A DNA stretch of 64,000 nucleotides from Bacteroidales bacterium (lineage in GTDB: Bacteria > Bacteroidota > Bacteroidia > Bacteroidales > UBA1715): contig JADKDL010000027.1 of assembly GCA_016714605.1 (NCBI GenBank), positions 1,527 to 65,526 of the forward strand, given 5' to 3'. The position numbers were made by a program, and so were the translations under genes. The notes beneath the pieces were generated by a model. It was not told the origin of the DNA and searched no databases. It worked only from the letters and a program-made list of their open reading frames with translations. Shown piece after piece: positions 5,942 through 42,069 of the stretch (position 1 is its first letter; every line of letters begins with the position of its first letter).

Positions 5942-8514
5942 TTATTTCCAAGTTAATTCACATGCAGCATTTACTTTTACAAGATATCCTTTGCCCCAAT
6001 CAAGTTTTAATAATGTATTAAACATTGTAGCTTGAGATTTATCATAGAAAGCTTCCATATTTTTTACAACCAACACATTAGACCAAATACTTGCAAGAGC
6101 AGTTTCAATATTTGTACTGCCATCAATAGGGCAACCAATTAAGTTCCAACCAGCTTTAAGTTTAATTGATAATGGTGCAGCATTTACTTTTACTGCAACA
6201 GCTGTACTTGTTGTAGTTGCGCCGCTATTATCTGTAGCTACTGCAGTAATACTGTAGCTACCAACTGCCATACCCGACCATTCATAAGAATATGGAGCAG
6301 ATTCGTCGGTGTTGAGAAGTGTTGTGCCAGCGTAGAATTTTACACTTGCAATAGTTCCGGTAGCACTTGCAGCTGTAGCCGTTATAGTAATTTTTTGATT
6401 TGTAGTAAATTCAGCATTTGCAACAGGTGCAGATATACTTACCGTAGGAGGGGTAGAGGCTGGCGCAAATGTCATGTAGTTTAGATTTACATAATCGGTA
6501 GCACCAATAGTAACTCTAATTACCTGAATTCCTGCTGTTAAAGTAACATCTTTAACGGTTACATCTTGCCATATTTGCCAACCTGTAGTATTAGGAATAG
6601 CCACATTAGGAGCAACTGTAACGCCATTAGCTTGAATATCAACCGTTCTTGCATCTCCGTTACAAGCAGCACGAAGTACGAGATTATATTTTCCGGCTGT
6701 AGTAACATTTACGGTATATTCCAACCATTCACCTGCTGTAGCATAGCCCAAATTATATCCGGTACCTACATCGGTACAGTTTTCCAAGTCAACATCTTCA
6801 TCGGTACGGAAAGCTGCACCACCCGAGTTTGTTGTTGCATTGTCGAGGTAAGCAGAGCCATTACCACCAACATCGTAGTGTTCAAATTCAATTTTACCCG
6901 GTATTGCCCATGGTGTACCGTTGTATGCGGCTTGTGCTGACTTACTTTAAAAGCGACACAAGATTGTCCAGTTTTTCCACCACTACTAGTTGCCACAGCA
7001 CAAATTGAATACGAGCCAGCGGCAACATTCGTCCAAGTATATGAATAAGGAGAAGTTAAATCTTCTCCCAAAAGCATTGTGCCATTATAAAATTCAACCT
7101 TAGTTATTGTTCCTGTTCCAACAGTTGCAGTAGCATTTATAGTAATTGAAGCAGGAGCTGTATAAGAAGCATTATTAGCAGGAGCTGTGATTGTAACTAC
7201 AGGAGCATCGGTAGTAGCTTTTCCTACAAATGTGGTAACGCTAGCAGCATCAAGAGTAACAGAAAGTGAAGTACTCGCATTTATATTTGTACCTTTTGCA
7301 ATGTTTTTTGAACCTGATGTTGTATAGTTTTCCCATGTAGTAACTTGTGTACCTGGTATAGAAATAGTTAATGTTTGTGCTGTTGTATTTTTATTAACAA
7401 CTACAATAACTACATCATTATCTTTTTTATATGCTGATACGAATACATTAGTTTTAGGATTTTTAGTAGCATCAACTCTTACGTAACCCGGACGAACCCA
7501 TTTAGAAAACTGAGCCATGCAATAGCCTCTTTTGGTAGCTGTGCCAGGAGTAGTAGAAATAGTATTTCCAGCTTTATCTTTTCCGTCATGTATCATTGCA
7601 TAGTATCTTCGTAATGGCCAGAAAACGTAGGTTTGAAAATTACCATCAACCATTGCATAGTGTATATGTTCAGCTACTTTAAGAGCATGACGAGCATCAT
7701 TTATATAATTGTCAGTCCAAATGTTTGCATCGTAATCGCTATCAGTATAAACCTCTGTCATCCAAAGTTCTTTACCTGCTCCCTTTTGCTCAAAAAGCGC
7801 GTAAGGAAAGTCTTTATATTGTGTACCATATAAATGCGTACCAAAAATCGATACTTTTGAAAGAGCTGTTGCATCGTTTAAAATTGGATCATAAACTGTT
7901 TTTCTATACTGAAAAGATTCAGGTGTCATAAGTTTACATTTTATTCTATCTGCATAGCCTTTAATGAAATCAACAGATTCTTGCGGACTCCATTCAGTCC
8001 AGTCGTGAGCATAATCAGGCTCATTCTGGGTAGAAATTGCATATAATTCAACGCCTTGACCTTTCATATAGGTAACATAGCTGTTCAAGTGGTCTGCATA
8101 TTGACCATATGTAGCCGGATTAATTCTTTTCACTCCATTTACGGTGATAAACTGACCAGCTGGTGGATTCCAAGGCGAAGCAAATACATATGCACCTTGA
8201 CCATAGGCATATTTTGCAGTTTCAATACCTTGTCCCCAATTGTTCTTATTATCAGAAACAAATGTACGAAGTACTGTAAAACCTAATTGTCCGGTTCCAT
8301 TACCAAATGCAAGTTGTCTTTCAGCAGCATTCAAATCAGAATACCACTCCGGATGGTTAATACCTCCAAAACCTCGAATCACCTGTTTTGTAGATGTTAG
8401 TGTTACCGTAGCTTGACCAAACACAAGTATGCTAGAGAGCATCGTTATAAATAGTAAAAGTCTCCTTTTCATAATTTTATTTTTAAAATTTAAATTTCTC
8501 ATTTTATTAAACAC
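5942..8514 (-). CDS. GH30 (subfamily-8-like) glucuronoxylanase/endo-xylanase followed by Ig-like, CBM6 and Ig-like modules and the conserved C-terminal module. A 1-bp frame break lies near 6935-6945.
   Basis: Signal peptide, GH30 motifs VIRGFGG and ISTQNEPD, and a beta-sandwich C-terminal domain. An Ig-like segment ITKVEFYNGTMLLGEDLTSPYSYTW follows. Past the break (agtcagcacaagcc should read AQAAYNGTPWAIPGKIEFEHYDVGG) the CBM6 and KAGWNLIGCPI tail continue in ORF 5942..6787. Confidence 0.8.
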
Positions 8515-8998
8515 GTTTATTTATTTCCCTATAAAATCTTTAGTTTTTTCTTCTTTATCAAAGTTAGTTTCGATTATATAAAAACACTTGTAGTATTTGT
8601 TTCTATTATGTACCATTTTTGTTTCGCATATATATAAGGTTTTAATAATGAGGTTTATATATATATTTTATCTGCTGAGTTTTGATGAAAATACTAAGTA
8701 AAGTAGATTTGATTTATGTATTTTTCTACTTTATTATTTTATTCAAGTAGTTTCCTTAAGCTAAATGAAATTGCCAGTCTATTGTGAAACGTAAAATTCA
8801 GTGAACAATATGGTAATTGGGTTTGTACCCAAAAATCAATAGAAATGCTAAGTTGATTCATAAGGGCTTATAAATCTTTTGAACCATTACTTTATTTAAT
8901 TTACAATTAAACCAATCTTTTTTGAGTAATGGTTTTACAGAATCTAATTTGTTACTAACGGTCTCTAATAAGTAGGATGCTAATATTTATTGAAAGAA

Positions 8999-11900
8999 CT
9001 AATTTTTCCTGAATTTTTCAGCATATTCAGTTGGTGTAATGCCATATTCTTTAATGAATATTCTAGAGAAATAGCGTGGGTCTGAGAAGCCTACATAGTC
9101 TGATACTTCAGAGATTCTGTATTTTCCGGTCATAAGCATGGTAGCTGCTTTTTGCATTTTTATATCTTTGATATAATCTTTGAGCGATTTTCCGGTTTTG
9201 GTTTTAAAAAGCCTCCATAATTGCGTACGACTCATACCTATTTGGTCTGCAACCATGTTGGTATTCAATAGTTCGTTAGAAATATTGTAATTAACAAATT
9301 CAAATATTCGCTTTATCATCTTATTATCGAAATCTTCCGGCAAATTAGAAAGACTATTTGTTTGAATATTTTCAATAATACTCTTTTTATATTCCAAAAT
9401 GGCATCAACCTTTTTCTTTAAAAAATAAGGGTCAAAAGGTTTTTCAATAATATCGCTGGCTCCATTTAAGTAAGCGTTGTCTTGTATGCTTTTTTCTTTA
9501 TGAGAAGTTATGAGAAGTATTGGAATATGTGAAGTTAAAGGATCATTTTTAATAATAGAGCAAATTTCTATGCCACTTATTTCAGGTAAATTAATATCGC
9601 TTATTATAATGTCGGGAATGATTTGTTGCGCAATATTTAATCCGTTTTTACCATCGGCAGCTTTAAATAATTTATAATTATGGTCAAAAATATTTTCAAT
9701 TGTATCTAAAACCTCTGCATTATCATCGATAATTAATATGGTAGCAATTTCTTTTTTAACATCTTCATCAGTAGCTGACGAAGATGGCAGGCTATCGTTT
9801 TTGGCAGCAATTACAACTTTCGTTTTGCCTTTGGGCAGAGAGGCGGTGAATACAGAGCCATTACCTTCGTTACTAGTAATTGTGAGCGTTCCTTGAATTT
9901 TTTTCTAAAAAACTTTTACAAATTCTTAGTCCTAGTCCGGTACCTTTCTCGTTTTCGGTTCCATAAGAAGAAAATACCGCTTCATTCCTAGAAAGAATTG
10001 TGTTAATAAGTTCATTACTCATGCCTATGCCGGAGTCTATAAATGTAGTATCAATAGTATTTTCTAGCTCTTGAATAAATACTATAATGGTTCCGTTTTG
10101 TTCTGTAAATTTAATTGCATTTGACAGAATATTTCTAAATACCATACTTGCCATTCTTGGGTCAACGAGTGCATTAGAAGAATAGTCGGTATGGGTAGTG
10201 ATTGTAATTTTTTTACGAGTAGCGTTGCTTGTCTCTAGAGAAATGGCATCGTCAAGGAGAACTTCTAGGTTTATTTCTACCGGAGAAGCTTGTAGTTTCG
10301 CATCTTCGCTTTGTACCCAATCAAGAACGGTCATCATTTGAGTGATGAGGGCGTTTACTGAATTAAGAAGGGTGGAGGTGTATTTTCTAAATTTTTCATA
10401 TTTTGAGTTATCGCTTTCTTTGTGTAGCAAAGTTGAAATACCAAGAATTCCGTTGAGTGGATTTTTAAAATCGTGTGCCAAAACACTAATTAATTGGTCT
10501 TTTGAATTTAATACCTCCTTAAGTTGTTGGTTCTTCATTTCAATAACCAATTGTTTTTCATTCAATATTTCATTTTTGTGAAACAGAGATTCTGTTCTAA
10601 TTTGCACTTGTTGTTCAAGCATTTTATTTACTTTTCTTAAAGAAGAAAAACGGTAGAATACAAAACCGGTAATAGCTAACGCAACAAAAAGTGATAAACC
10701 AAAACGAAACCAAATAGTTCGCCACCAAGGCGGCACTACAGTTATGAGTACCGAATTTATCTGACTCCAATTTCCTTTTTCTGTACAAGCTTTTACCTGA
10801 AAAGTATAAGTACCCGGTTGCAAAGCTGAGTAGTTTGCATGTCTGCTGTTTGCATCTGCTTGAATCCAGGCATCTTCCAAACCATCAAGTTTGTATGCAT
10901 ACATTATATTCCTATTATTTAGAGGATCTATGCTTGCAAAATTTATAGTAAAAGAACTTAAGTAGTGAGGTAAGGTAATCTCATTGGCGTATCCAATTGC
11001 TACAGGAAAGGGAATATCTTTACCATACAATTCACGAGGGTTTATCGGCATTCCAAATATTTTCACATCGGTGAGTACCGGAGTTTTTGCTTTATTCTTT
11101 TTCGCTATTTCTCTAGGGTTAAAGGAGAATATGCCGCCATCATCGCCAAAGTAAAGATTACCGTCGGTATCTCTGAAGAGGAGTTTGTGAAATATTTGCT
11201 GGTAACCCCGTCGGAGGCATCGAAATGAGTGAAGGTATTTTGTCTGATATCATATTTGGTTAAGACCGATGAAGTGAACCAAATATTACCATCTAAATCT
11301 GATTGTACCGATTCTATGACATTAGATTTTAAGCCGTCTTCGACTTTGAAAGCAGTGAAAATTCCGGTTTTCTTTTCAAAGCAATTAAGTCCGCCGCCGT
11401 TTGTACCTATCCAAATATTGCCGTTGCCATCATCATGCATAGATAATATAACGTTGTGGGTTATTGAATTTTTATCGTTGTTTGTTGTGTACTTTATTAT
11501 TGTTGGTTTAGGAGCCGTAGGATTTTTCACCTGAACCAAACCATTTCCAAATGTACCGAGCCACAAGGAGCCGTCTGAGTCTTCATAGAGGGTATAAATG
11601 ATGTTTTTATTTACATCGGTAGAATCTAAACTAATTATATAACGTTTGTTGTTTATATAGTCAAAACCTTCCATACCGTTGCCCCAGTGTGTTACCCAAC
11701 AAATGCCCCGCGAGTCGGAATAAATGTTTTGATGTATGGCTGCCGAGAACAATTTCTTTTTTTGTTTTGTATTGAGGTTATATTTGTAAACATCAACAGC
11801 CGAAGACAATAGTAATTCGGTTGTTGAAAAGGAATTTATAGCAAATACAGGAGTGTTTGCTATAATTGTTTGTTCTTTTGTTTTTGTATCGAAAGAGAAA

Positions 11901-13021
11901 GCTCCATAGAGGTTTGAGGCTATGATATTATTTCCAATAGCACAAATACTTTTAGCATGCAGTCCGTTAAAATTCTTTATAGAAAGGGTGTAATGAGAAA
12001 AAATATTCTTTTTATTATTGAGCACAAATATACCATCATCCATGGTTCCTACCCAAATATTCCCCTCGCGGTCGCGGAAAATAGTATTGCAGATAACCTT
12101 ATCAAAATCAAAAGTAATCTTACCTGAACGATTAAATCTAGTTAATATACCATCTTCGGATAAGGTAAATAAGCCTGGGAAGCCTCCAATTATAAGCGTT
12201 CCATCGTTTGTATAGGCAACATCAGAAATGAATAAGATTTTGAAATTTTCATTATCAAGGTTTTCTTTAGGAAAGAATTTAAATTTGAGGGTTTGTGTAT
12301 TTAGCGTATAAATTCCAGCTTCGCCGGCAACAATCATTATTTCATCTTTTTTGCCCCTTTTTATACCTCTTACAAAACTCAAATTTGTGTTTTCAGGAAA
12401 TACATTTTTTATTTTCATTTGTTTGTAATCGAAACGAAACACGCCATTGGTTCCGTTTATCCATAGGTAACCGTCTAGACACTGAATAGTAAGATAGTTG
12501 TTTATTGATTTTGCAATGCTTAGAGAATCAATATTGATAATTTGGGTAGCAGTTTTAGTGTCGGCTTCGAATTTCACCAGATAATTTTCGCGTATCAGTC
12601 CCCAAATATTTCCATCATCGTCGGCACAGAGTTTTTTAGAACCTGTTTTTTTGTCAAATGCATTACCGAATAGGTGAATTTTATGAAACGATTCAAATTG
12701 TGGATTGAAATAAAAAAAGCCTATATCGGTAGAAATCCATAGAATGCCGTTTTTGTCAACAACAAGATCGTTTATGAGAGCAGCTTTAAGGGAGAGGCTG
12801 TCTTTGCTGTTAGAAAGGAAAGATTTGAAGCTATAACCATCAAATCTGTTTAAGCCGTTTGTAGTACCAATCCAGATAAAGCCTTTGTTGTCTTGAGTAA
12901 AGCAGGTAATTGTTTTGTGAGAAATACCGTCGGCAGTGGAGAAGTTTTTAAAAGAATAGTCATTCCCCACAGAATAGAAGTAGTGTAATAGTAAAAAGAG
13001 TATTAAAGTAAAATACTTCAT
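8999..13021 (-). pseudogene. Hybrid two-component system (HTCS) sensor/regulator with two beta-propellers, a Y_Y_Y domain, HisKA, HATPase, a receiver and an AraC-type HTH. It is split into four pieces by a 10-bp tandem duplication (9501-9520) and single-base indels near 9893 and 11170.
   Basis: ORF 11105..13021 carries the propeller repeats (NGLNRFDG, IWIGT, LWLGT). ORF 9873..11066 has PGTYTFQVKA (Y_Y_Y), a TM segment, the H-box LISVLAHDFKNPLNGILG and GTGLGLRICK. Correcting the frame at 9893 gives ...GTLTITSNEGNGSVF, then the receiver ATILIIDDNAEVLDT...ISDINLPEISGIE...PILLITSH. The receiver stops at the duplicated ttatgagaag ttatgagaag. Removing one copy reads straight into KEKSIQDNAYLNGASDIIEKPFD...EYKKSIIEN and the AraC HTH of ORF 8999..9397. 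Confidence 0.8.
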
Positions 13022-13189
13022 AAGATAAGGCTATGTTTATGAAAAGGAGTTTTCTTAAACTACTTAAACACATAAAAATATAAAAAGTTTATAATTGATA
13101 AAAATTTATTTTTTATTGGTGCAGAAGCGATATTCTATTTTGCAGGAGCGATAACCTTTCCAATTTTTCATTACCCTTCCCCTTTTTTA

Positions 13190-13440
13190 GCCGAAACTTC
13201 CATTTAAAAAACGAAAGCTTCCATCTATTTTACCAAAGCTTCGGTCTTTTTCATGAAAGCTTTCGCTATTTAAACCGAAGCTTTGGTTCTAATCATGGAA
13301 GCTTCCGCATAAACAACCGAAGCTTCCGTTATTTTTGCGGAAGCTTCGGTATAAAAGATGAAAGCTTCGGTCAAAATAACCGAAGCTTTCGTTGTTTTCA
13401 TGAACATTTCGGTCAAAATGACCGAAATGTTGCTTTTTAT
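13190..13440. repeat. Array of 12 units at an exact 21-bp period, each centred on AAGCTT (core CCGAAGCTTCGG). Units alternate in orientation, giving about 42-bp palindromic super-units. The array lies 170-420 bp upstream of the HTCS start.
   Basis: AAGCTT hexamers at 13215, 13236, 13257, 13278, 13299, 13320, 13341, 13362 and 13383, exactly 21 bp apart, with degenerate end units at 13194, 13404 and 13425. Flanks alternate between atGAAAGCTTCGGTCaa and aCCGAAGCTTTCGTTgt, which are reverse complements. Confidence 0.85.
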
Positions 13441-13614
13441 AATTCAAATTAGAATTTTATCTATCTAATATTTGACCAATCCAAAAATAGCTTGATAGAA
13501 TTAAACAATAGATTGCACTATTTGAAGAGAAAGAATAATTTTCTTTTCAAATAGTGCAATTGTAGAGATTTTACTTTGATGTTTTAGACTTGACCTAAGC
13601 TATCAAAAAAATAG

Positions 13615-14643
13615 TTAAAACCTAAAACCTAATTGTACTGCGATATTAAAAGAATGAACGAATTCATATTCAATAACAAAAAATTCATCGGAAGTTCTGT
13701 CTATTTCATATTCTCCTACATAACGAAGATTATATTTTATATCTAAACCAATACCAAAATATTTTTTGCGTAACCTGAAAAGAGTGGTTATATTAAGAAC
13801 TTCACTATCCTTTAAATATGTTTGATGAATTGTTAAGCCGTTTACCAAGCCAAATTCCAATGCCGCTTTATCATTTTTACTTATAGTAAAATATGGTCCA
13901 AATTGCAATATGTCAAAATTAAGTTTTTCATAAAAAACAAAAAGTTGAATATTGGATCTTGTAATAATACCAAATCTATTTCTATCAGTAAAATTTTTAA
14001 AAATGAAATATAACCTAATGTATAACCTAAAATTTGATCATTTTCATCGTTAGATGTAATACTAAGCCCATTGCATGCTTCAAAATAAAATCCTGATTTA
14101 TTTACAATATATGTATTAATTGTTCGATAAGGAGCTACGTTACTTTGCAATGAATCATCTGCCTCATATCTAAATTTATAAGATTTACTACTTGAATCAT
14201 CAATTACTACTTTTTTTTCTGAATTTAAAGTTGCATCAGTGGAATATAAATTAATAATTTGCAATTTTAAAGATTCTGCTTGAGCATACTCATTTTCCTT
14301 TACTAATTTTCTTATTTGCAAACGCAATTCCTTCTCTTTTAAAAAATCTATTTTTTAAAGAAGAGTCTTCAGGTCGTGAAGCATGTCTTATCTCTTTTTT
14401 TAACTCTTTTATTCTTTTTTCATTTATAGTTTGTGCTGATGCACTGAAAAGAGCTAACGTACATAGTACTATTAGTAAAAACTTTTTCATTTGTTTTTTT
14501 TTATAGATGAATATTTTTTTGTGTTGAACTGTTATATTTTCTTTTGGAATAGTATGAGTCTGTTTTTTGATAAAAATACTATTTAGTATTTCTAGGATTA
14601 AAACCCATACTTGCCAATGCTGTGGATTAAAACTTAGCTCCAA
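13615..14643 (-). pseudogene. Decayed copy of the cassette A-type gene (paralog of 15549..16427), split into three ORF fragments by frame changes.
   Basis: ORF 14290..14643 has the signal peptide MKKFLLIVLCTLALFSASAQ plus INEKRIKELKKEIRHASRPEDSSLKNRF. ORF 13881..14327 has LKLQIINLYSTDATLNSEKKVVIDDSSSKS. ORF 13615..13908 ends IAVQLGFRF. All are collinear with A2. Confidence 0.7.
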
Positions 14644-15439
14644 CTCTTACTTCTAGAGATTTGGATGAAAGAGGTGTCTCTTCTCTTAGAGAGCCCATAT
14701 TATTTGAAAAATTAAAACATATACTTACTCCAAATCTACCATTTCTAATTCCTACATAAGGAATAAAACTATATAAATCAATTTTACCTGGTTCATTAGT
14801 ATAATATAATCCATTAAAAAACATATCTTTCCCAAGTAAAATTCCCATTTCTATGGCACGTTTATCTTTTATGGGAAATACAAACTGAGGTCCAACTTGA
14901 AATACATTCCAAATACGACCATTTCTACGAGACATTGTACAAATTGAGGTTCTTACGTTTATACCAAATTTAGCACCTCTATTAAATTTTGCTAAATAAC
15001 CCATATAACCCATACCGATACCCATACCTAAATCACCAATATCTTCAAATATTAAAGCATTATTGAAAAAATCGGCGTAAAATGCAGATTTTGTCATTTT
15101 GTGAATTTTTTCGACATCTAATTTTTCTACAGTTGAAATATTATAATATTGGTTATCATATACATTCACTATATTTGATTGAATTTTAGAGGATTCTAAC
15201 TTAGTAATAGCAGCTTCTAACTGTTTAATGTTTACAGAATCATTCTTTTTATATGCTTCTTTCAATTGAACACGTAAATTCTTTTCAGGTTTAAGTTGTT
15301 CTGCTTTTGCAAATTCGTCATTAATAAGGGCATTCTGAATTTGTAATTCGATTTTCCTTAATCGTTTTTTATTTTCACTCTGAGCGTACAGACCGAGTGA
15401 AATTATTAATACCAAAACTACCAAACTAATTCTTTTCAT
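14627..15439 (-). CDS. Cassette B-type protein, copy 1: small secreted protein with an N-terminal Lys/Glu-rich coiled-coil-like segment and a beta-rich C-terminal domain ending in Phe (looks like an outer-membrane beta-barrel). Function unknown.
   Basis: Signal peptide MKRISLVVLVLIISLGLYAQ, KKRLRKIELQIQNALINDEF, glycine/aromatic-rich alternating segments, C-terminus EVRVGAKF. Paralogous to 16493..17308 and 18753..19577. Confidence 0.65.
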   Translation of the reverse strand: MKRISLVVLVLIISLGLYAQSENKKRLRKIELQIQNALINDEFAKAEQLKPEKNLRVQLKEAYKKNDSVNIKQLEAAITKLESSKIQSNIVNVYDNQYYNISTVEKLDVEKIHKMTKSAFYADFFNNALIFEDIGDLGMGIGMGYMGYLAKFNRGAKFGINVRTSICTMSRRNGRIWNVFQVGPQFVFPIKDKRAIEMGILLGKDMFFNGLYYTNEPGKIDLYSFIPYVGIRNGRFGVSICFNFSNNMGSLREETPLSSKSLEVRVGAKF

Positions 15440-15548
15440 CTGTTTTATAAAATTTAAATTTAATTTGAGAACTATCTTCCTATACTACTTGACAGAATTT
15501 AACAGTAAATTCTGATTTTTTTTAATTTTTAAGCTTTCAAGAAATAGT

Positions 15549-16427
15549 TTAAAACCTAAAACCTAAATGAATTCCGAAATTAAAATATCTAACAAATTTA
15601 CTTCCTAGAATATAATTATTAGTAATAGTCTCTATTTCATACACATCCATTTTATGAAGATTATATTCAAGATCTAAACCAATACCAAAATATTTTTTGC
15701 GAAACCTGAAAAGTGATGTTAGATTAAGAACTTCAAAATCCTTTAATTCAGTATAAGGTTTTAGTGTCAATCCTGTTACTAAACCAAATTCAAAAGCTGA
15801 TTTGTCATTGTTACTAATAGTCAAATATGGTCCTAATTGCAATATGTCAATATTTAATTCTTCATTAGGTACACGAATTTGAATATTGGATCTGGTAATG
15901 AATCCTAATCTATTTCTGGAAGTAAGATTTTTAAAATAAGAAATACGACCAAATGAATAACCCCAGATATGATTCACTTCACTCTCATATGATGCAATAC
16001 TAAGTCCACTAAACCCTTCGAAAAAAAATCCCGATCTATTTACATTATATGTTTTAATAGTTCGATAAGGAGCTACGTTATTTTGCAATGAATCACCTGT
16101 TTCATATCTAAAATTTGAAGATTTACTACTTGAATCATCAATTGCAACTTTTTTTTCTGAATTTGTAGTTGCGTCAGTGTAATATAAATCAATAATTTGC
16201 AATTTTAAAGATTCTGCTTGAGCATATTCTTTTTCCTTTACTAATTTTTTGATTTGCAAACGCAATTCCTTCTCTTTTAAAAATCTATTTTTTAGGGAAG
16301 AGTCTTCAGTACGTGAAACATGTCTTATTTCTTTTTTTAACTCTTTTAATCTTTTATCGTTTAGAGATTGTGCTGAGGCACTGAAAAGTGTTAACGTACA
16401 TAGTACTATTATTAAAAACTTTTTCAT
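15549..16427 (-). CDS. Cassette A-type protein, copy 2: secreted coiled-coil plus beta-rich protein ending ...HLGFRF. Function unknown.
   Basis: Signal peptide MKKFLIIVLCTLTLFSASAQ, NDKRLKELKKEIRHVSRTEDSSLKNRF, alternating hydrophobic beta-strand-like segments, terminal Phe. Paralogous to 17414..18658 and the decayed 13615..14643. Confidence 0.65.
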   Translation of the reverse strand: MKKFLIIVLCTLTLFSASAQSLNDKRLKELKKEIRHVSRTEDSSLKNRFLKEKELRLQIKKLVKEKEYAQAESLKLQIIDLYYTDATTNSEKKVAIDDSSSKSSNFRYETGDSLQNNVAPYRTIKTYNVNRSGFFFEGFSGLSIASYESEVNHIWGYSFGRISYFKNLTSRNRLGFITRSNIQIRVPNEELNIDILQLGPYLTISNNDKSAFEFGLVTGLTLKPYTELKDFEVLNLTSLFRFRKKYFGIGLDLEYNLHKMDVYEIETITNNYILGSKFVRYFNFGIHLGFRF

Positions 16428-16492
16428 CTGAATTTATTTTTGAAATATGAATATTTTTGAAATTATTGAATCTATATTTTTATCCTTTTAAA

Positions 16493-17308
16493 TTAAAATT
16501 TACCACCAACTCTTATTTCAATAGATTTTGATGAAATATGCTGTTCGTATTTTTTTACTTCATTCCAAATATCTGAAAAATTAATGCAGAGTGAGACACC
16601 AAATTTTTTATATCGAATACCAACATAAGGAACAATACTGGTTTCATTCACTTTTTCAAAAAAATACGAATCTTTTCCTATTAAAATTCCTGTTTCTATG
16701 GCACGTTTATCTTTTATGAGATATAATAACTGGGGACCGGCTTGAAATACATTCCAAATATAATCATTTTCAAAGAGTAGTTTGCTTACAGAAGATCTTG
16801 CATTAATACCTATTTTCGTTTTATTATTAAGCTTTGCTACATAACCTACATAACCTAAACTAACTCCTATACCTAAATCAGCTTTGTAGTATTTGTGGTT
16901 ATTTATATATTGATTAAACGTTATACAATAATTGTAAAATTCTACGTAAAATGCAGATTTTGTCATTTTGTGAATTTTTTTGACATCTAATTTTTTATTG
17001 TCAACAGATGTAATACTATTATATCTTTTATTATTATCATTTTCAATATTTGATTGAGAAGCATATAATTTAGTAATAGATGCTTCTAGCTGATCTATGC
17101 TCACAGAATCATTCTTTTGATATGCTTTTTTCAATTGAACACGTAAACTTTTTTCAGTTTTAAGCTGGTCTGCATAAGCATATTCATCATTTATGAGGGC
17201 ATTCTGAATTTGCGTATCGATTTTCCTTAATCGTTTTTTATTTCCTCTTTGAGCGTACAGCCCGAGTGAAATTATTAATACCAATACAATCAAACTAATT
17301 CTTTTCAT
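16493..17308 (-). CDS. Cassette B-type protein, copy 2.
   Basis: About 80% identical to 18753..19577 by eye (MKRISLIVLVLIISLGLYAQRGNKKRLRKIDTQIQNALINDEY...IEIRVGGKF). Confidence 0.65.
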   Translation of the reverse strand: MKRISLIVLVLIISLGLYAQRGNKKRLRKIDTQIQNALINDEYAYADQLKTEKSLRVQLKKAYQKNDSVSIDQLEASITKLYASQSNIENDNNKRYNSITSVDNKKLDVKKIHKMTKSAFYVEFYNYCITFNQYINNHKYYKADLGIGVSLGYVGYVAKLNNKTKIGINARSSVSKLLFENDYIWNVFQAGPQLLYLIKDKRAIETGILIGKDSYFFEKVNETSIVPYVGIRYKKFGVSLCINFSDIWNEVKKYEQHISSKSIEIRVGGKF

Positions 17309-17413
17309 CTGTTTATTTTTTTAATTATGTTCTATTTTTGAACTATCATATAATACTTGTCAGAATTTAACAATATGTTATTTTTTTTTATTATTCTTAA
17401 TCTATCAAAAAGT

Positions 17414-18658
17414 TTAAAACAACCTTGCACCAACTTGCAGTCCGATATTTAATTTTTGAAGATTGCAATCAATATCAAAACCAATAGCAAAATTTGAAAT
17501 ACGAATCCTAAAAAGAGCGGTTAGATTTAAAATATCAATAGGAATATCGTCCTCATACCTAGGCGAGATTGCTAATCCGTTTACAAAGCCAAACTCAAAT
17601 GCAATTTTATCATTTTTACTAAATGAAAAATATGGTCCAAATTGAAATATATCTATATTAACCTCATCAAATCTAAATTCACTTATATCTGAAATAAAAT
17701 ATTGAACATTTGATCTGGCAATAAAACCATACCTATTTCTAGAGGATAAGTTTTTTAAATATGAAATACAACCAAATGAAAATCCTAAACCGACAGTTGC
17801 AACATTGTAACTACCTATTCCAAGCCCATTATATCCTTCGAGATAAAATCCGGATCTATTTATAATATCACTAGGATTAATTCTTTTATAAAGAACTGCT
17901 TTTTTTGGATATAAATAATTTTCCTTATGGGTAGATTTTAAAGTATTACTTATTGAATCTTGAATAATAACATTTTTTTCAGAAATTACCGATGAATCAT
18001 TAGAATTTAATTGAATAATAAATAATCTTAATGTTTCTGCGGTTGTCTTAATTTCTTGGTTTATATGTATTCTATTTTGAATGCATATTTGCTGCTCTTT
18101 TGTATATTTATTAATTAGAATAGAATCGTTTATATTTGAAGCAAGAGTTATTTGATTATTCAAGTCTCTTATTCTTTTTTCATTATTAGTCTCAGAAAAC
18201 TCAGCAGAAAGAAATTCTCCTTTTTTTGATTTTAAATAATAAGCTTGAGTAAATTTTTTTTCCTTCCTCAATTTAATACTTAGAATATTCAATTCGTGCC
18301 TAAGATTAAGTTTGTTCTTTTTGGTAGTTTCTATAGGACTTGAAACTTGAGGTGTATCTTTATTTAAGGCTTCAAGTTTTTTTTCAGATATGGTTTCTTT
18401 ATATGCAGATAGATATAAATCAATAATTTGCAATTTTAAAGAATCTACTTGAGCTTTCTTTTTTTCTTGTTTAAATTTTCTAATTTGTAAGCGCCAATCT
18501 AGTTCTTTTACATATCTATTTTTTATTGTAGAATCTTCAAGATTTGAAGCAAGATTTATTTCATTTATTAGCCTGATTATTCTTTTTTCGTTTACAGATT
18601 GTGCTGAGGCACTGAAAAGAGCTAACGTACATAGAAAAATTAATAAAAATCTTTTCAT
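17414..18658 (-). CDS. Cassette A-type protein, copy 3, carrying an internal duplication of the N-terminal coiled-coil segment. C-terminus ...LQVGARLF.
   Basis: Signal peptide MKRFLLIFLCTLALFSASAQ. Two successive NEKRI(R/I)xLNxxI(N/T)LASN(L/I)(E/N)DS... segments. Beta-rich tail collinear with A2. Confidence 0.65.
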   Translation of the reverse strand: MKRFLLIFLCTLALFSASAQSVNEKRIIRLINEINLASNLEDSTIKNRYVKELDWRLQIRKFKQEKKKAQVDSLKLQIIDLYLSAYKETISEKKLEALNKDTPQVSSPIETTKKNKLNLRHELNILSIKLRKEKKFTQAYYLKSKKGEFLSAEFSETNNEKRIRDLNNQITLASNINDSILINKYTKEQQICIQNRIHINQEIKTTAETLRLFIIQLNSNDSSVISEKNVIIQDSISNTLKSTHKENYLYPKKAVLYKRINPSDIINRSGFYLEGYNGLGIGSYNVATVGLGFSFGCISYLKNLSSRNRYGFIARSNVQYFISDISEFRFDEVNIDIFQFGPYFSFSKNDKIAFEFGFVNGLAISPRYEDDIPIDILNLTALFRIRISNFAIGFDIDCNLQKLNIGLQVGARLF

Positions 18659-18697
18659 AAATAATAAATTAGTAAGTATAAATATTTTTAAAATTTT

Positions 18698-18740
18698 TAA
18701 ATTGGGGGCGCGACTCTAAGTCGCACTCCTAGTTTGAAAA
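18698..18740. repeat. Nested palindromic element of about 42 bp (core GCGCGACTCTAAGTCGCACTCC), copy 1. It is GC-rich in an AT-rich intergenic region between cassette genes.
   Basis: aaattgggggcgcgactctaagtcgcactcctagtttgaaaa. The inner perfect stem is gcgact/agtcgc. The near-identical copy is at 23169-23210. Confidence 0.7.
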
Positions 18741-18752
18741 TTGCTGATGAAT

Positions 18753-19577
18753 TTAAAATTTACCACCAACTCTTATTTCAAAAGATTTTGAAGAAATATG
18801 CGTCTCATTTTTTGATGCGCCCCAAGAATCAGAAAAATTAAGACAGAATGAGACACCAAATTTATTATATCGAATACCAACATAAGGAGCTATACTGGTT
18901 TCTTTCACTTTTTCAAAAAAATACGAATCTTTTCCTATTAAAATGCCTGTTTCTATGGCACGTTTATCTTTTATGAGATATAATAACTGAGGACCTACTT
19001 GAAATACATTCCAAATATAATCATTTGTAAAAAGCAATGTGCAAAAAGACGATCTTACGTTAATACCTAATTTTGTTTTACTATTAAGCTTTGCTACATA
19101 ACCTATAAAACCTAAACTGGCACCTATACCTAAATCAGCTTCGGTAATAGGGTAGTTGTAGGATTCGATCTTTTTATATGTATCATATATTATTATATTA
19201 TTGTAAAAATCTATATAAAATGCAGATTTTGACATTTTATGAATTTTTTTTACATCTAATTTCTTATTATCTAAAGATGTAATACTATTATAGCTGTTAT
19301 TAATATCTTTTTCAATATTTGATTGAGAAGCATTTAACTTAGTAATAGTATCTTCTAACTGAATTATGCCCACAGAATCATTCTTTTTATATGCTTTTTT
19401 TAATTCTACTCGTAAACTTTTTTCAGTTTTAAGCTGCTCTGCATAGGTAAATTCATCATTTATGAGAGCATTCTGAATTTGTAAATCGATTTTTCTTAAT
19501 CGTTTTTTATTTTCACGCTGAGCGTACAGCCCGAGTGAAATTATTAATACCAATACAAGTAAACTAATTTTTTTCAT
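18753..19577 (-). CDS. Cassette B-type protein, copy 3.
   Basis: MKKISLLVLVLIISLGLYAQRENKKRLRKIDLQIQNALINDEF...FEIRVGGKF. Confidence 0.65.
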   Translation of the reverse strand: MKKISLLVLVLIISLGLYAQRENKKRLRKIDLQIQNALINDEFTYAEQLKTEKSLRVELKKAYKKNDSVGIIQLEDTITKLNASQSNIEKDINNSYNSITSLDNKKLDVKKIHKMSKSAFYIDFYNNIIIYDTYKKIESYNYPITEADLGIGASLGFIGYVAKLNSKTKLGINVRSSFCTLLFTNDYIWNVFQVGPQLLYLIKDKRAIETGILIGKDSYFFEKVKETSIAPYVGIRYNKFGVSFCLNFSDSWGASKNETHISSKSFEIRVGGKF

Positions 19578-23250: not shown

Positions 23251-25032
23251 ATGAAAAAAATACTAAAATATTCAGCATTATCATTCATTTTGACCCAGTT
23301 CATAATCCTCTATATCAATGTTCAAATATTTCATTCATTCTCCTCTTGGTTGTTTGGTACGGTGTTCGGACTTACAATTGGAATATCAATGGTTGGGGGA
23401 CAATATTTTATAAAAAAACACATAAAAAAACGATTTCCGTTACTACAAAATCCTATTAAAAATATACTATTGCACTTTACAATAGGAACAATCTATACTA
23501 TAATTGTGATTTTACTATTAAATTACATAGCTTGGGTATTGATATTTAATGTGCCGTATGAGCAGTTTATACAGTCAAATTGGGTTTCTATAAAAATTGC
23601 AATAATCATGTATTTTGGTATTTCACTTTTCGTTTATTCATTCATTTTCTATAAAAATTGGAGAGATTTGGCAATGGAACAAGAAAAGCAACGAACCGAG
23701 AGTCTGCGTTTACGTTTCGAAGCATTACGCAACCATGTAAATCCGCATTTTTTATTCAATAGTTTAAGTTCGCTCACGCACTTGATAGAAATAGACAAAG
23801 ACAAGGCAATTTCGTTTACCAATCACCTTGCCGAGACATACAGATACATAATAGAACACAAAGATACAGATCTGGTTACATTAGACGAAGAGATGAATTT
23901 TGTGCAGTCGTATCTGCGTTTGCAGGGAATACGCTATGGCGAATTGATTCAAATAAATAATAGGGTAGTAGATAACCAAAACACCTATTTTGTGATTCCA
24001 GTATCGGTTCAAATGCTTATTGAAAATATATTTAAACACAACGAAATTTCAAGAAGTTCAAAAATTGTGATTGAAATATGGATTGAAAACGATTATTTGT
24101 ATATAAAAAACAATATAAATACGAAGAGCGAAGATTTAGACCGAACACCAACCGGACTCGCAAATATTCGTAGCCGTTATGAATATCTATCAAACCGAAT
24201 ATGTATCTTTGGAGCGCAAGAAAATAATTTTATAGTAGCTTTACCATTATTAACAAGTGTAGAAAAAAAGACAATGCGAGCTGTAGTTATTGAAGACGAA
24301 CCCCTTGTGAGCGATTATTTAGTAGCACTTATCAAAAAAATAGATCCAACTATAGAAATAATAGCAACACTAGATACGGTAAAACAATCTATACCGTGGT
24401 TTGCTGCAAACCCAGCGGTAGATATAGCATTTATGGATATTCGCTTGGCAGATGGAATAAGTTTCGATATTTTTGAACACTGCACGGTGCCCTGTCCGGT
24501 TATTTTTACAACCGCTTACGACGAATATGCAATCCGTGCATTTAAAGTAAACAGCATCGATTATCTGCTGAAACCAATAAAACAGAATGACCTAGAAAAT
24601 GCGCTGATAAAATTTCGCAATCAGAGCAACGTTCAAAGTCAATTCAAAAACGAACAAATAATTCCAGTTTTAAAGAATGAAATAAAAACAGGTTATAAAA
24701 CCAGATTTGTGGTGAAAGTTGGAGAACGCCTAATAATGATTCCCCTCGAAGAAATAGTATACTTTTGCAGCAAAGACAAATCTACATGGATCTGCACCAC
24801 TGCTGGGAAAGAATACCCAATAGAACAATATATTGACTCACTTGCAGAATGTATTTCACCAACAACATTTTTCCGCATCAATAGAAAATATTTCGTATCC
24901 ATACATGCAATAAAAGACATTATAGTCTATTCCGGTAGTAGACTTCTGGTAAAAATGCCACACTGCAACAACGAAGATACTATTGTAAGTCGCGAAAAAG
25001 TATTAGATTTCAGAAAGTGGATTGAGGGATGA
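23251..25032 (+). CDS. Single-polypeptide fusion of a LytS/YehU-type membrane sensor histidine kinase with a receiver and a LytTR DNA-binding domain.
   Basis: Five or six N-terminal TM helices. The LytS-type H-box NPHFLFNSLSSL. An ATPase region (MLIENIFKHN...GLANIRSRYEYL). Then MRAVVIEDEPLVSDYL...DIAFMDIRLADGISFDIF (receiver) and FVVKVGERLIMIPLEEIVYF...TFFRINRKYFVSIHAI (LytTR). Confidence 0.75.
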   Translation: MKKILKYSALSFILTQFIILYINVQIFHSFSSWLFGTVFGLTIGISMVGGQYFIKKHIKKRFPLLQNPIKNILLHFTIGTIYTIIVILLLNYIAWVLIFNVPYEQFIQSNWVSIKIAIIMYFGISLFVYSFIFYKNWRDLAMEQEKQRTESLRLRFEALRNHVNPHFLFNSLSSLTHLIEIDKDKAISFTNHLAETYRYIIEHKDTDLVTLDEEMNFVQSYLRLQGIRYGELIQINNRVVDNQNTYFVIPVSVQMLIENIFKHNEISRSSKIVIEIWIENDYLYIKNNINTKSEDLDRTPTGLANIRSRYEYLSNRICIFGAQENNFIVALPLLTSVEKKTMRAVVIEDEPLVSDYLVALIKKIDPTIEIIATLDTVKQSIPWFAANPAVDIAFMDIRLADGISFDIFEHCTVPCPVIFTTAYDEYAIRAFKVNSIDYLLKPIKQNDLENALIKFRNQSNVQSQFKNEQIIPVLKNEIKTGYKTRFVVKVGERLIMIPLEEIVYFCSKDKSTWICTTAGKEYPIEQYIDSLAECISPTTFFRINRKYFVSIHAIKDIIVYSGSRLLVKMPHCNNEDTIVSREKVLDFRKWIEG

Positions 25033-33483: not shown

Positions 33484-35597
33484 CTAAAAATTATACATCA
33501 AACTACCCGACAACGCTCTGCCTTGCAGGTTGTAACCGTCTTTTTCTGTATAGTTTTCGTCAAAAAGATTGGAAACGGTAATGCCGAATTTTACTTTATT
33601 CAGTTTGTAATAAACAGAGAGGTCAAATAAAATATGGTCGGGCTGTTGCAGTATTTTATTTTTTGGAGTATATCCTCCTTCGTCATAATAATCATCGGCA
33701 GTGATGTTTGGGCGGAGTTTGGTAAACGAGTCTTTCTCCAATCTGGAACCTATATAACGACCATGAAGTCGGCACGAGAGCCCTTTGAACGAATCGAAGT
33801 AGATACCGAAATTGCCGTTTGCTTTTCGGCTATAGAGCATATCTCGGGTTACTAGACTATCTTCTCCTACTGAATTTTTCAGGGTTTCATCGACCGTATT
33901 TTTGAGCAGATAGGTGAAATTTGCATACAATTCCAATTTCCATTTATTGCTTACCAAAGCACCAAAATCGGTTGAAAAGAGTATTTCCAAACCTCGCATT
34001 GCTGAATTATTTGCATTTTTGAAGGTAGTGGTGTCATTTTCAGTTACATTAATTATTTTATCTTTATGATTAGTTATAAAGTAGGTAATATCTGTTGAAA
34101 ATAAGCCTTTAGGAAGATTCAGAGCTAATCCGAAATCTACGGTCGACGAACTTTCGGGTTTCAAATCTGGATTGCCTACATAGTAATCTGAGCTTGAATA
34201 ATTTCCTGCCATTTTAAACGCATCGGGTACAGAAAAACCTTTACCATAACTGGCATGAGCTTTCATATACTTTGCAAATTTGTATTGCAATCCTGCCGAT
34301 GGAGTAAATACATTGTAAGATTCCTTCCCTCCACTGGCATTGAGTAGCGAATCGGCATCTATTTCATAATTTATATTTGAAAAACGACCACCAAGGTTTG
34401 CACTTAAATGCTCTCCAGTATATGCAAGTTGAGCAAAACACCTAGTTTAGAATTTCTATTGTCGGGTTTGTATGGGTTGATGTTCAATGTTTTAGACGAG
34501 TATCTATCTGAATTATAGTCATACATATCCCAATCGCCACCGAGCATACATTTTAGTTTACCAAATGAATAACTGTCGTTCAATTTCAAACCATATTCGC
34601 TCACTTTGGTGTCTAGAGAAACATATCCGGTGTCGGAATTATCGGAATAGTTCGCCGTATTTTCAAGCGTAAAGTACGGACTTATTTCAAACGAATTGCG
34701 TTCACTTTTTTGCGTTATTGGCAAATAAAAGTTAAAACGTTCTATGTCTTTTTTGCTTTGTCCGGCACTTCCCCAGTAGTTGCCCGGAGTTTCAATATCG
34801 TTGGCTATGAAATAGATAGCCTCGGCCGAAACAGTCCATGATTTAGCTATAGACTGAATATAGCTTCCATTTATCTGGTTTGTGCTGAATGTGGAATTTT
34901 TCATCACATCATTGAAAGAAGCTTCATCGAGAATTGCCAACTGTTTTTTATTCATTTCCAGTAGGTTATTGCCCCCGATGCGATAGTCCTTCATTTGTTG
35001 ACGATGAGAGAATCCGAGAATCAGTTTCGACTTGTCTGTCAACTTACCAAAGACACGAGCACTTGTATTAAACTTTCCATTGCTACCAACCGAAATACTT
35101 GCTGAACCGGAAGTCTGTGAAAAATCTTTTTTTGTAATAATATTGATAATTCCACCCATAGCATCAGTGCCGTAGAGCATTGAGTACGGGCCTTTTACCA
35201 CCTCAATAGATTCAATCATTTCGGGGTCTATAGCTGCTATATTGCAAGTACCCATTGGTTTGCCATTGAGCAAAATGAGCGTATAAGATCGAGAATGAGC
35301 ACTTGGCGAAAAGCCTCGCATCCCAACCGAAGCCGAAACTCCGGGATACTGAATAATATCAATATTCGCAACACGTTTCAAGGCTTCTGCAAGATTCTCA
35401 TTTGGAACAGCAGCAATAGCAGTTTTACTGATAATTTCTACCTTTTGCGGAATATCATCGAGCGAGAGTCCTTGACGACTGGCGTTGATAATAACTTCCT
35501 CTACTTCAAGAGATTTAATACTGTCTGTAGTTTCTGTCTGAGCAAAAACCGAGGCAAAAAACAGGCATAGCAATCCTGTTGACATAAATTTGTACAT
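33484..35597 (-). CDS. btuB: TonB-dependent receptor, BtuB-like, controlled by a B12 riboswitch. At least one frame break near 34290-34440.
   Basis: Signal peptide, plug motifs (EEVIINASR, GPYSMLYGTDAMGGIINIITK), barrel with terminal ...SLMYNF. A cobalamin riboswitch lies immediately upstream. Confidence 0.7.
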
Positions 35598-35699: not shown

Positions 35700-35890
35700 G
35701 TGATAAAAACCATCACTATGCTTTTTCTCCCGAAAGCAATGATTTTACTTGTGGCAGGTCTTCTGGCTCGTCCTTATTTCTGAAACCTTCCCATTTCGTT
35801 TGGCGAAACAGTGGCATATTATCAGAACCATATTACAGGACATACAGCTGCGGGTACAGCTCAGGATTTTCTGCTTTCGCAAATTACCTG
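35700..35890 (-). ncRNA. Cobalamin (B12) riboswitch, copy 1, leader of the BtuB-like receptor. Coordinates approximate.
   Basis: Minus-strand reading: GGGAATCAGGTAA...CCTGAGCTGTACCCGCAGCTGTA...GCCACTG...GGGAAGG...AGCCAGAAGACCTGCCAC (B12 box). Confidence 0.8.
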
Positions 35891-36415
35891 ATTCCCTTTT
35901 ATTTGCACCATAAATTTTACTTTACAGAGCAAATACCATAAGTTGAGCAAATGTAAGAGAATATTTTAGAATAAGGAAATGGATTGAGGAAAAAAAAAGA
36001 ATTTTCCTTGAATCTGAAAAACCTATTATTGTAAATAATGGACGCTGATTTTTATTTTCTATTAAAAAAGTAGAGTGTTTCAATGAATCAATATTTCAAT
36101 TATATTTTTCTTTCCAAATATTTAATGAAATTATTTATTGATTGTTTATATTGACAATATAAGCTAGTTTATACTGTCAATATAAACTTCAAACACCATA
36201 TTATTAAAATCTGAAATAGAAAAGGCATATACTATTTAAAATGAATTTATTAGAAGCGAAATAAATTATACTTACTATGACTTTCTTCAATAAAACAGAA
36301 GGGATTATTGAAACTAATAATCAGAAAGATATAATACAAGTAGATAATAGAAAGATAGAACTTATACCAGCTTTTGAATTTGTTGGATAAAAATATGATA
36401 TAAAAATATGTCTTT

Positions 36416-36465
36416 AAAAGAAAAGGGAATGTTATAATTTAAATTATGACATTCCCTTTTCTTTT
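36416..36465 (-). terminator. Hairpin with a perfect 17-bp stem overlapping the helicase stop codon. Its A/T-rich flanks suggest a bidirectional intrinsic terminator.
   Basis: aaaagaaaagggaatgt tataatttaaattatg acattcccttttctttt. Confidence 0.6.
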
Positions 36466-41624: not shown

Positions 41625-41830
41625 ATACCTACTGCCTTTATCCCGAAAGCTTCGTACTGGTTTTACTTGTGGCAGGTCTTCTGGCTCGTCCTTGTTTCTG
41701 AAACCTTCCCATTTCGTTTGGCGAAACAGTGGCATATATTCAGAAACATAATACCGGACATACAGCTGCGGGTACAGCTCAGGATTTTTTGCTTTCGCAA
41801 ATCACCTGATTCCCTTTTATTTACCAATCA
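41625..41830 (-). ncRNA. Cobalamin riboswitch, copy 2, leader of the btuF-cobO-btuCD operon. Near-identical to copy 1 over about 190 bp. Coordinates approximate.
   Basis: Same core: ttttacttgtggcaggtcttctggctcgtcc...gaaaccttcccatttcgtttggcgaaacagtggcatat...acagctgcgggtacagctcagg. Confidence 0.8.
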
Positions 41831-42069
41831 AGCCCTGAGTCTTAATAGGTAAATACCATAAGTACGGCAAATATAGAAGGTTTATTTTTATTTTAAAAAG
41901 AATTTTATAGGAATATAATACCTGATATTTTAAGTTTTAAAATACTTCAAATAATAAATTAAATGTATTGTATTCCAATCACTCACTCAATTACAATTAA
42001 ATAAAAAAGCCAATAAAATCTTTTTTATTGGCTTTTTTTAGGGAAATTATTAATAGTATCTTACTGTAT

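Follow-up and report, generated by a model that had tools for sequence, protein, structure and literature searches.

It is still being established how HTCS regulators select and occupy their promoters; the first footprints became available in 2026. Comparative genomics of Bacteroides predicted HTCS operators that were all direct repeats, with two conserved sites averaging 21 bp apart; in one example, two 14-bp sites are separated by a 6-bp spacer, so that the monomers occupy the same face of the DNA with two helical turns between them (PMC3878776). Footprinting of BT4124 located the half-sites 21-22 bp apart, and the BT4124 promoter carries two sites, i.e., four half-sites, at -126 to -88 and -75 to -34 (PMC13292587). 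Here we describe an array of 21-bp units upstream of an HTCS gene in a 64-kb stretch of Bacteroidales DNA (64,000 nucleotides, hereafter the window). In geometry, its unit is exactly an HTCS half-site plus spacer.

The array is known from a single locus in one MAG, where it lies inside a 593-bp spacer between two minus-strand transcription units (Table 1). As the earlier note on this DNA had placed it, it is located upstream of the HTCS start, at 169-419 bp from the ATG (13021, minus strand), and downstream of the stop codon of the last cassette gene (13615). The HTCS gene had been described as disrupted. Its reading frame is indeed split, but only by two single-base frameshifts, of which one falls in a run of seven A (A7); REC and AraC remain intact and in frame with each other. 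Several other genes in the window are split likewise. Because only single-base frameshifts are involved, in a MAG with many split genes, the disruption is most likely an assembly artefact and the gene is probably intact. Downstream of the HTCS gene are GH30, GH10, CBM6 and esterase genes. On the other side, no Pfam or NCBIfam family was found for the cassette proteins, and a search of 5.8 billion proteins found homologues of the cassette B paralogue only on its own contig. The array is situated immediately outside the duplicated cassette unit, to its left; we rejected it as a marker of the edge of this low-GC block, because it is outside the duplicated unit and nothing similar occurs at the other edge.

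Table 1. Position of the array and of neighbouring features (numbering of the window)
Feature	Position	Strand	Description
HTCS gene	8999..13021	minus	Reg_prop, Y_Y_Y, HisKA, HATPase_c, REC, AraC HTH; split by two frameshifts
Direct repeat TGCAGRAGCGATA x2	13120..13153		13-mers at 13120 and 13141, starts 21 bp apart
Array, 12 units of 21 bp	13190..13440		9 central units with perfect AAGCTT, 3 terminal degenerate units
Nine central units, AAGCTT invariant	13211..13392		14-mers starting 13211, 13232, ... 13379
Hairpin domain H1	13212..13307		13212/13296 and 13233/13275 nested around self-complementary 13254; minus-strand T6 after (13211-13206)
Hairpin domain H2	13316..13350		13317/13338 exact reverse complements; 13-nt arms, 100 % complementary
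Hairpin domain H3	13357..13393		13359/13380, 14-15 bp stem; terminator-like, both strands; T-rich tail
Hairpin domain H4	13403..13431		13401/13422; 13-nt arms, 100 % complementary
Putative Bacteroidetes-type -7 box TATTTTTG	13482..13489	minus	Exact consensus match; TTG 19 nt upstream
Hairpin, 21-bp stem, 95 % complementary	13512..13560		Between cassette stop and array
Three tandem pairs of paralogous signal-peptide (OMP-like) orphan genes (cassette)	13615..19577	minus	GC ~0.27

The remainder of the window is ordinary chromosome, encoding functions in cobalamin uptake and cytochrome c biogenesis as well as TonB receptors; it also has two cobalamin riboswitches (Rfam, gathering score). Pfam annotation of the window revealed no replication, partition, integrase, phage, RAYT, transposase or cas genes. 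A LytTR hybrid kinase/regulator is encoded 10 kb from the array (23251-25032). A methylation or restriction reading of AAGCTT was rejected because the window has no methyltransferase gene. A D12-class methyltransferase was seen near one external locus only (L034, described below), which we took as coincidence.

The hexamer AAGCTT starts at 13215, 13236, 13257, 13278, 13299, 13320, 13341, 13362 and 13383, a step of exactly 21 bp throughout, as had been noticed from the sequence. When the window was block-shuffled 20 times, exact-period runs of a 6-mer reached 3 copies at most. Degenerate units at 13194 (AAACTT), 13404 (ACATTT) and 13425 (AAATGT) are in the same register, which agrees with the twelve units that had been counted. 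A column-by-column profile revealed a conserved block of 14 bp, A[CT][CG][GA]AAGCTT[CT][CG][GA]T, and the unit can be described as a 14-bp quasi-palindrome with the consensus ACCGAAGCTTCGGT plus a 7-bp A/T-rich spacer. The flank-extended unit CCGAAGCTTCGG given by the earlier note is right as a consensus; however, each unit carries at least one mismatch to it, none matches it perfectly, and the block that is really conserved is the 14-bp one. The immediate flanks of AAGCTT vary in two flavours, and the central units score 17.7-24.4 bits with the position weight matrix (PWM) of the array. Since conservation is confined to part of each unit, Tandem Repeats Finder picked up the region only weakly, as repeats of 21, 42 and 63 bp with 75-77 % matches. 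In 10 of the 12 spacers, runs of three or more A or T can be read from the sequence, phased at two turns.

The core and the spacers have had different fates. Among the nine central units, pairwise identity of the core is 0.75, with AAGCTT invariant, whereas spacer identity (0.36-0.39) is at the random level expected from spacer composition (0.38). The 14 core columns hold fewer mismatches to the consensus than expected (39 observed versus 52.7, P ~0.001). The 21-bp register runs across all 12 units without any indel, A/T homopolymers in most spacers notwithstanding. A kept core, drifted spacers and an intact register together point to constraint on core sequence and helical phase, and the array is real, non-coding and under constraint. 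The combination of invariant core, drifted spacers and unbroken two-turn register is the best discriminator among the explanations, and it is what phased symmetric binding sites need. We therefore ranked first, as a tentative choice held with less than even confidence, the reading that the array is a DNA-level platform for a symmetric binding protein. Neither a hairpin function nor neutral decay explains the combination.

The units are also related to each other as inverted copies. When spacers were compared allowing either orientation, their identity rose to 0.565 against a null of 0.475, a value reached by 0 of 3000 shuffles, which fits a history of duplication with inversion. Consecutive units had been described as reverse complements of each other. 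This holds for 13317/13338 (12/12), 13359/13380 (11/12) and 13401/13422 (10/12), but 13233 and 13212 pair with 13275 and 13296, respectively, nested around 13254; 13233 and 13275 are exact reverse complements (12/12). In H2, neither unit is perfectly palindromic alone. In a column-shuffle test, the summed best-partner complementarity was 152 versus a null of 142.9 (p = 0.003), whereas the self-palindromicity of the units was 114 versus 115.6 (p = 0.68), i.e., without excess over column frequencies. This difference implies that pairing between units has been favoured, whether through selection for a hairpin or cruciform or through a mechanism. The cores of H4 changed from AAGCTT to ACATTT and AAATGT, a fully compensatory triple change. 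That H4 kept its complementarity while losing AAGCTT favours selection or a mechanism acting on pairing and not on a recognition sequence, and it counts against a DNA-level platform, as do self-palindromicity at the column-frequency level and the occurrence of similar external arrays without a common gene context.

Folding of 281 nt covering the array gave a minimum free energy of -116 kcal/mol for the minus strand and -106 kcal/mol for the plus strand (z ~-12.5), with four strong hairpin domains on both strands; with DNA parameters, z was -11. The earlier note had expected an extensive hairpin RNA if the array is transcribed, an alternative that these folds leave equally alive. Strong folding is partly automatic for palindromes, but the pairing between units goes beyond that. 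Three terminator-like hairpins were found in the array where 0.5 were expected, and most of the stacked hairpins lack a proper T-tail. The hairpin at 13512..13560 is probably the terminator of the cassette operon. The window contains 123 copies of TANNTTTG, against about 100 expected by chance, and between the array and the ATG only one-mismatch -7 boxes were found. If the exact -7 box upstream of the array is active, transcription from it would make the array a ~450-nt leader of the HTCS mRNA. Five metagenomic loci were detected with a family-specific probe (AAGCTTCGGT-N7-ACCGAAGCTT). Three of them (L144-L146) are single terminator hairpins that share the stem sequence and have T-tails; in viral contigs the probe had zero matches.

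These observations bear on an explanation at the transcript level, which we regard as a serious rival, though doubtful in itself. Minus-strand RNA of the array, produced by read-through of the cassette operon or by initiation at the -7 box, would fold into the four hairpins. These could be stacked intrinsic terminators or an insulator before the HTCS promoter, or else give the HTCS mRNA a structured 5' leader with a possible attenuating function. The low z values of the folds, the excess of terminator-like hairpins, the T6 that follows H1 on the minus strand, the exact -7 box, the reverse-complement partners with their triple compensatory change, and the use of the same stem in ordinary terminators elsewhere all agree with it. 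However, any palindrome array folds strongly, and the uniform 7-nt loops and linkers and the invariant AAGCTT remain unexplained at the RNA level. Identical 7-nt loops and linkers would not be needed by RNA hairpins, which we infer to count for a DNA-level platform. Wobble and mismatch positions show no preference for a strand, H3 having two G.U pairs when read on the plus strand and H1 having one on the minus strand, and so give no sign of strand-specific RNA selection. The cassette already has its own putative terminator hairpin, and the promoter match is to the consensus only. No Rfam family was found over the array at the gathering score, and a permissive scan gave generic hairpin matches far below threshold.

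Pairing between units can also arise without a function. When a polymerase switches templates between the arms of imperfect inverted repeats, the arms become homogenised, spacers are inverted and multinucleotide "compensatory" changes arise (PMC5941160, PMC8604942, PMC13100816). The array might accordingly be a functionless quasi-palindromic minisatellite in a tolerant intergenic spacer, expanded by slippage and by duplication and inversion of a 21- or 42-bp hairpin-prone unit, with template switching inside the array correcting stems and not loops; we consider this, too, doubtful in itself but a close rival, on a par with the transcript-level explanation. The inversion-tolerant likeness of the spacers is what template switching predicts (PMC8604942), and the edges of the array are degenerate. 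On the other hand, the spacers are nearly saturated with changes, yet there are zero indels over the 12 units, where neutrality would be expected to leave several. Spacer length is not protected by template switching, and nine units keep AAGCTT unchanged beside variable flanks.

Searches for the motif within the window revealed the array only. Scanned across the 64 kb, the PWM gave a best outside score of 14.1 bits, compared with shuffle maxima of up to 17.5; there were no motif pairs at 20-22 bp outside the array, and the 12-mer at up to three mismatches had chance-level matches only. Before the adjacent xylanase genes (8515-8998), the PWM scan gave no site above chance. A second 21-bp array, unrelated to the palindrome array, is present in the window. 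The best HTCS relative in the databases is 48 % identical; neither it nor the next one (38 %) has a counterpart of the array, both being too distant for orthologous strains. The uniqueness of the array in the window, its lack at the HTCS relatives and the presence of the second array agree with the minisatellite explanation.

Outside this genome, 21-bp minisatellites are very common. A search of 185,579 species genomes for three RAAGCTTY spaced 21 bp apart found at least 120 loci in many phyla. Among the matches listed, the majority are ordinary minisatellites, conserved over the full 21-mer, and many fall within long ORFs. We compared AAGCTT with the composition-matched control cores AACGTT and TTCGAA. 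In viral contigs, the same 21-bp geometry had 21 matches for AAGCTT, 13 for AACGTT and 11 for TTCGAA, and AAGCTT itself had 18 matches at a period of 18 bp, 21 at 21 bp, 23 at 24 bp and 2 at 20 bp. At the collected loci, a local period control overlapped the selected arrays and was used for independent arrays only. Because the control cores and the periods of 18 and 24 bp give similar counts, we rejected a cross-phylum system of AAGCTT at 21 bp; the excess at 18, 21 and 24 but not 20 bp indicates a multiple-of-3 effect of coding repeats and not a shared system. These frequencies favour a minisatellite origin of the array. Core-only non-coding arrays were few among the matches listed (L003, L028, L034, L085 and L098), and their gene context is not shared. 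Two of them, L034 and L085, are copies of a dispersed 470-bp array element in one Bacteroidia MAG, 81 % identical and located between different, unrelated genes, which also counts for a minisatellite. The earlier note had named a generic minisatellite scattered over many loci as the finding that would speak against its reading; this describes AAGCTT arrays in general, but not this 14-mer family.

As 21 bp correspond to seven codons, the array could be coding sequence for a heptad-repeat peptide, either a remnant or one that has gone unrecognised. The plus strand has an open frame of 116 codons (13102-13452) encoding xRSFGxx heptads, ORFs are called across related arrays (see below), and the excess of periods 18, 21 and 24 over 20 shows most such minisatellites to be coding. 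However, this frame contains no ATG, GTG or TTG, and the other five frames across the array have 1-9 stops each. Moreover, the palindromic core is stop-free in every frame, which makes openness partly automatic, and 32 % of spacer-shuffled arrays still leave a frame open. We rejected a coding heptad-repeat minisatellite on the lack of a start codon and the openness of shuffled spacers, and consider a coding origin very unlikely.

One external array shares more than the period. At L148, a ~16-unit 21-bp array with the same core (cACCGAAGCTTCGGTg) lies directly upstream of an orphan 376-aa gene. At five relatives of this gene (44-100 % identity), an array of 300-450 bp with a 21-bp period in every case ends ~80-90 bp before the start codon. 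The unit sequence differs among these arrays; at L221-L223, it is cCTGTtACAGg plus an A/T spacer in 15 repeats. Gene callers annotate ORFs across the arrays of L216-L223. However, the ORF called at L148 carries the same DNA motif in all three frames after register slips, and L222 and L223, which are identical DNA, have ORFs called on opposite strands; both observations stand against a coding explanation. The arrays before this gene family suggest a recurrent promoter-upstream architecture in Bacteroidota, and the persistence of same-core and other 21-bp arrays upstream of an unrelated gene family counts for a DNA-level platform. One could go further and propose a Bacteroidota class of promoter-upstream "phased palindrome arrays" with 10-20 palindromic cores, a strict 21-bp period and free A/T spacers, which would serve as landing pads or decoys for HTCS/AraC- or LytTR-type regulators, the core turning over while the period is kept. 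The array described here, L148/L219, the arrays of L216-L223 and the L034/L085 element would be its putative members. We regard such a class as improbable.

Between the array and the HTCS gene, a 13-bp motif is repeated at 13120 and 13141. The two copies are 12/13 identical (p = 0.0006 at offset 21 and 0.007 over offsets 13-40), lie 99-132 bp upstream of the HTCS ATG and are 6 bp out of register with the array; no further copy of the motif was found in the 64-kb window. Because its geometry and position are as for site Ia/Ib of BT4124, this repeat is, by analogy, a better candidate than the array for a canonical HTCS-type operator. Alternatively, it may be a diverged, out-of-register end of the array.

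On the preferred reading, the array would be an old, non-coding, 21-bp-phased row of twelve 14-bp quasi-palindromic sites working at the DNA level. A symmetric (dimeric) DNA-binding protein may occupy successive sites on one helix face, and the array would form an upstream operator or "landing-pad" between the cassette terminator and the HTCS promoter/operator region. Its most plausible effect would be to modulate or insulate HTCS transcription. Protein binding, its cooperativity and DNA bending by the phased A/T tracts are what we infer from the arrangement of the sites. The hairpin potential and the reverse-complement covariation may then be a by-product of quasi-palindromic DNA, maintained by template switching between arms. 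That two-turn phasing is typical of a dimeric binder on one helix face had already been proposed; the palindromic core, the two-turn phase, the fixed spacer length and the constraint pattern support this proposal, whereas the absence of the motif elsewhere in the window and the array-free nearest HTCS relatives do not. The adjacent HTCS is an obvious candidate for the binder, because the family of its AraC-type domain uses half-sites 21 bp apart; we nevertheless consider it unlikely to be the protein that binds the array.

A 12-site phased array beside an HTCS gene would offer a ready substrate for asking whether membrane-tethered dimers, or another factor, oligomerise along DNA. It could also serve as a test case for the tuning of regulator dosage by site number and for the insulation of neighbouring operons by phased arrays. 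Should the array be a self-maintaining minisatellite, it would be a clean natural case of template switching in which stems stay alike while loops drift.

Similarities and differences were found with each of the known systems that resemble the array. Like the array, HTCS operators have a distance of 21 bp from centre to centre, with sites of ~14-16 bp and non-conserved spacers of ~5-7 bp; they too lie upstream of a gene of a glycan-utilisation cluster, and more than one pair per promoter is possible. The array thus has what HTCS operators have in the form of at least two conserved sites ~21 bp apart with a non-conserved spacer. It has neither their asymmetric direct repeats nor, in the 64 kb searched, their recurrence across a regulon. 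HTCS operators consist of 2-4 asymmetric direct-repeat half-sites and recur before susC-like or enzyme genes, whereas the array consists of 12 palindromic units partnering as inverted repeats and lies before the regulator gene only. A simple "HTCS operator" reading is opposed by three tests, namely the twelve palindromic units, the uniqueness of the motif in the window and the array-free relatives. Operators of the LytTR family are 9-bp direct repeats with A/T-rich 12-bp spacers, which also gives a 21-bp period. However, their consensus is a non-palindromic 9-mer in pairs; the array motif is unlike it and has no positional link.

Iterons and partition centromeres consist of about 10-12 phased short sites with a period of about two turns, on which cooperative binding builds a large nucleoprotein complex. 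Iteron arrays have a period of ~22 bp, and F sopC has 12 units of 43 bp that each contain a palindromic SopB site. Such likeness in geometry is what would speak for iterons or a partition centromere, belonging to a replicon that is either integrated or extrachromosomal; iterons are among the functions that had been suggested. However, iterons and centromeres (F sopC, R1 parC, pSK41) are mostly direct repeats beside rep or par on replicons, with the whole unit conserved, whereas the array has a chromosomal housekeeping context, and the window lacks genes of the rep, par, integrase and phage kinds. In a blastn search, it had no match among 72,556 plasmids and 50,697 phages, and it has no plasmid or phage similarity or family-probe match in viral contigs. 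A replicon origin or centromere is therefore rejected, and this reading is largely refuted and extremely unlikely. CRISPR arrays have repeats of ~23-50 bp, unique spacers of similar length and cas genes; we rejected this possibility because of the 14-bp repeats, the 7-bp spacers and a window without cas genes.

REP/BIME elements alternate in orientation between genes that run in the same direction, and they function in termination, in mRNA stability and in protein binding. They are clustered extragenic imperfect palindromes with GTAG or CGTC heads, associated with RAYT transposases (PMC3733652). The array, too, is a cluster of extragenic imperfect palindromes between co-directional genes. However, REPs are high-copy, dispersed and irregularly spaced, whereas the array is found at one locus in 64 kb with an exact period; its unit has no GTAG or CGTC head, and there is no RAYT in the window. 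With Rho-independent terminators, the array shares G+C-richer stems, A/T loops and T-runs after some stems. It differs from them in having at least four stacked hairpins in exact register with an invariant 6-bp core, mostly without a proper T-tail. No defined family fits the array, which is a novel form of phased operator or repeat arrays.

A 21-bp-period array of 300-450 bp was found upstream of the gene in every case of an orphan 376-aa gene family (loci L148/L218, L216, L217, L219 and L221-L223), which has a Bacteroidota context with T9SS-tail neighbours. These arrays end about 80-90 bp ahead of the start, and their unit sequence varies among the relatives. Gene callers annotated the arrays as ORFs; for L222 and L223, which have identical array DNA, the ORF was called on opposite strands.

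The AAGCTT-core arrays of L034 and L085 represent a dispersed 470-bp element, the two copies of which share 81% identity and have different flanking genes. The GTGCGC-core array directly adjoins the L085 copy. The unit of the Tannerella minisatellite is similar to the edge unit CCGAAACTTCC in the window, and cores like CCGAAGCTT recur in several Bacteroidota minisatellites.

Features of the window and of loci in other genomes (L034, L085, L065)
Feature	Location	Strand	Details
Split genes	window 8999-13021 (HTCS), 5942-8514, 33484-35597, 36464-37734		broken by single-base frameshifts
Direct repeat	window 13120-13153		TGCAGRAGCGATA x2; exact 21-bp offset; 12/13 identical; p = 0.0006
Gene cassette	window 13615-19577	minus	three tandem copies of a paralogous signal-peptide, OMP-like gene pair; GC 0.27 block
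Cobalamin riboswitches (2)	window 35736-35955 and 41654-41875	minus	97 and 93 bits
Secreted protein	window 54293-60814	minus	2173 aa
Minisatellite	window 62413-62799		21-bp period; 18.4 copies of TATGTTTGCCTCTCACATGCT; 86% matches
AAGCTT-core array	L034:979-1448 and L085:2101-2570		18 units plus short flanks; one Bacteroidia MAG
Second array	L085:2684-2948		42-bp unit; GTGCGC core; 91% matches
Minisatellite	L065:4475-4807		21-bp; unit gctCCGAAACTTCCGGAGcgt; well conserved; Tannerella MAG

The minisatellite at 62413-62799, the second of 21-bp period in the window, is unrelated to the main array. The exact Bacteroidetes -7 promoter consensus (TAnnTTTG) occurs within 14 of its units, and open frames with MFASHML-type heptads cross it on both strands.

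The cassette proteins are about 270 aa (A) and about 290-414 aa (B), and a search of 5.8 billion proteins revealed no homologues of the B family beyond its own contig. The cassette copy closest to the main array carries a frameshift. Elsewhere in the window, the cobalamin riboswitches lie upstream of TonB-receptor and corrinoid-uptake genes, and the N-terminal half of the secreted protein contains many ~95-aa repeats.

The HTCS gene (hybrid two-component system) has only two frameshifts, one of them inside an A7 run. The single-base frameshift pattern, seen in many of the window genes, is typical of indel errors in long-read MAG assembly, not of pseudogenes. The direct repeat lies ahead of the HTCS gene, at a distance of 99-132 bp from its start. 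Its geometry and position match those of the footprinted half-sites of the Bacteroides HTCS BT4124 (21-22 bp apart; PMC13292587), which makes the repeat a candidate operator for autoregulation of the HTCS.
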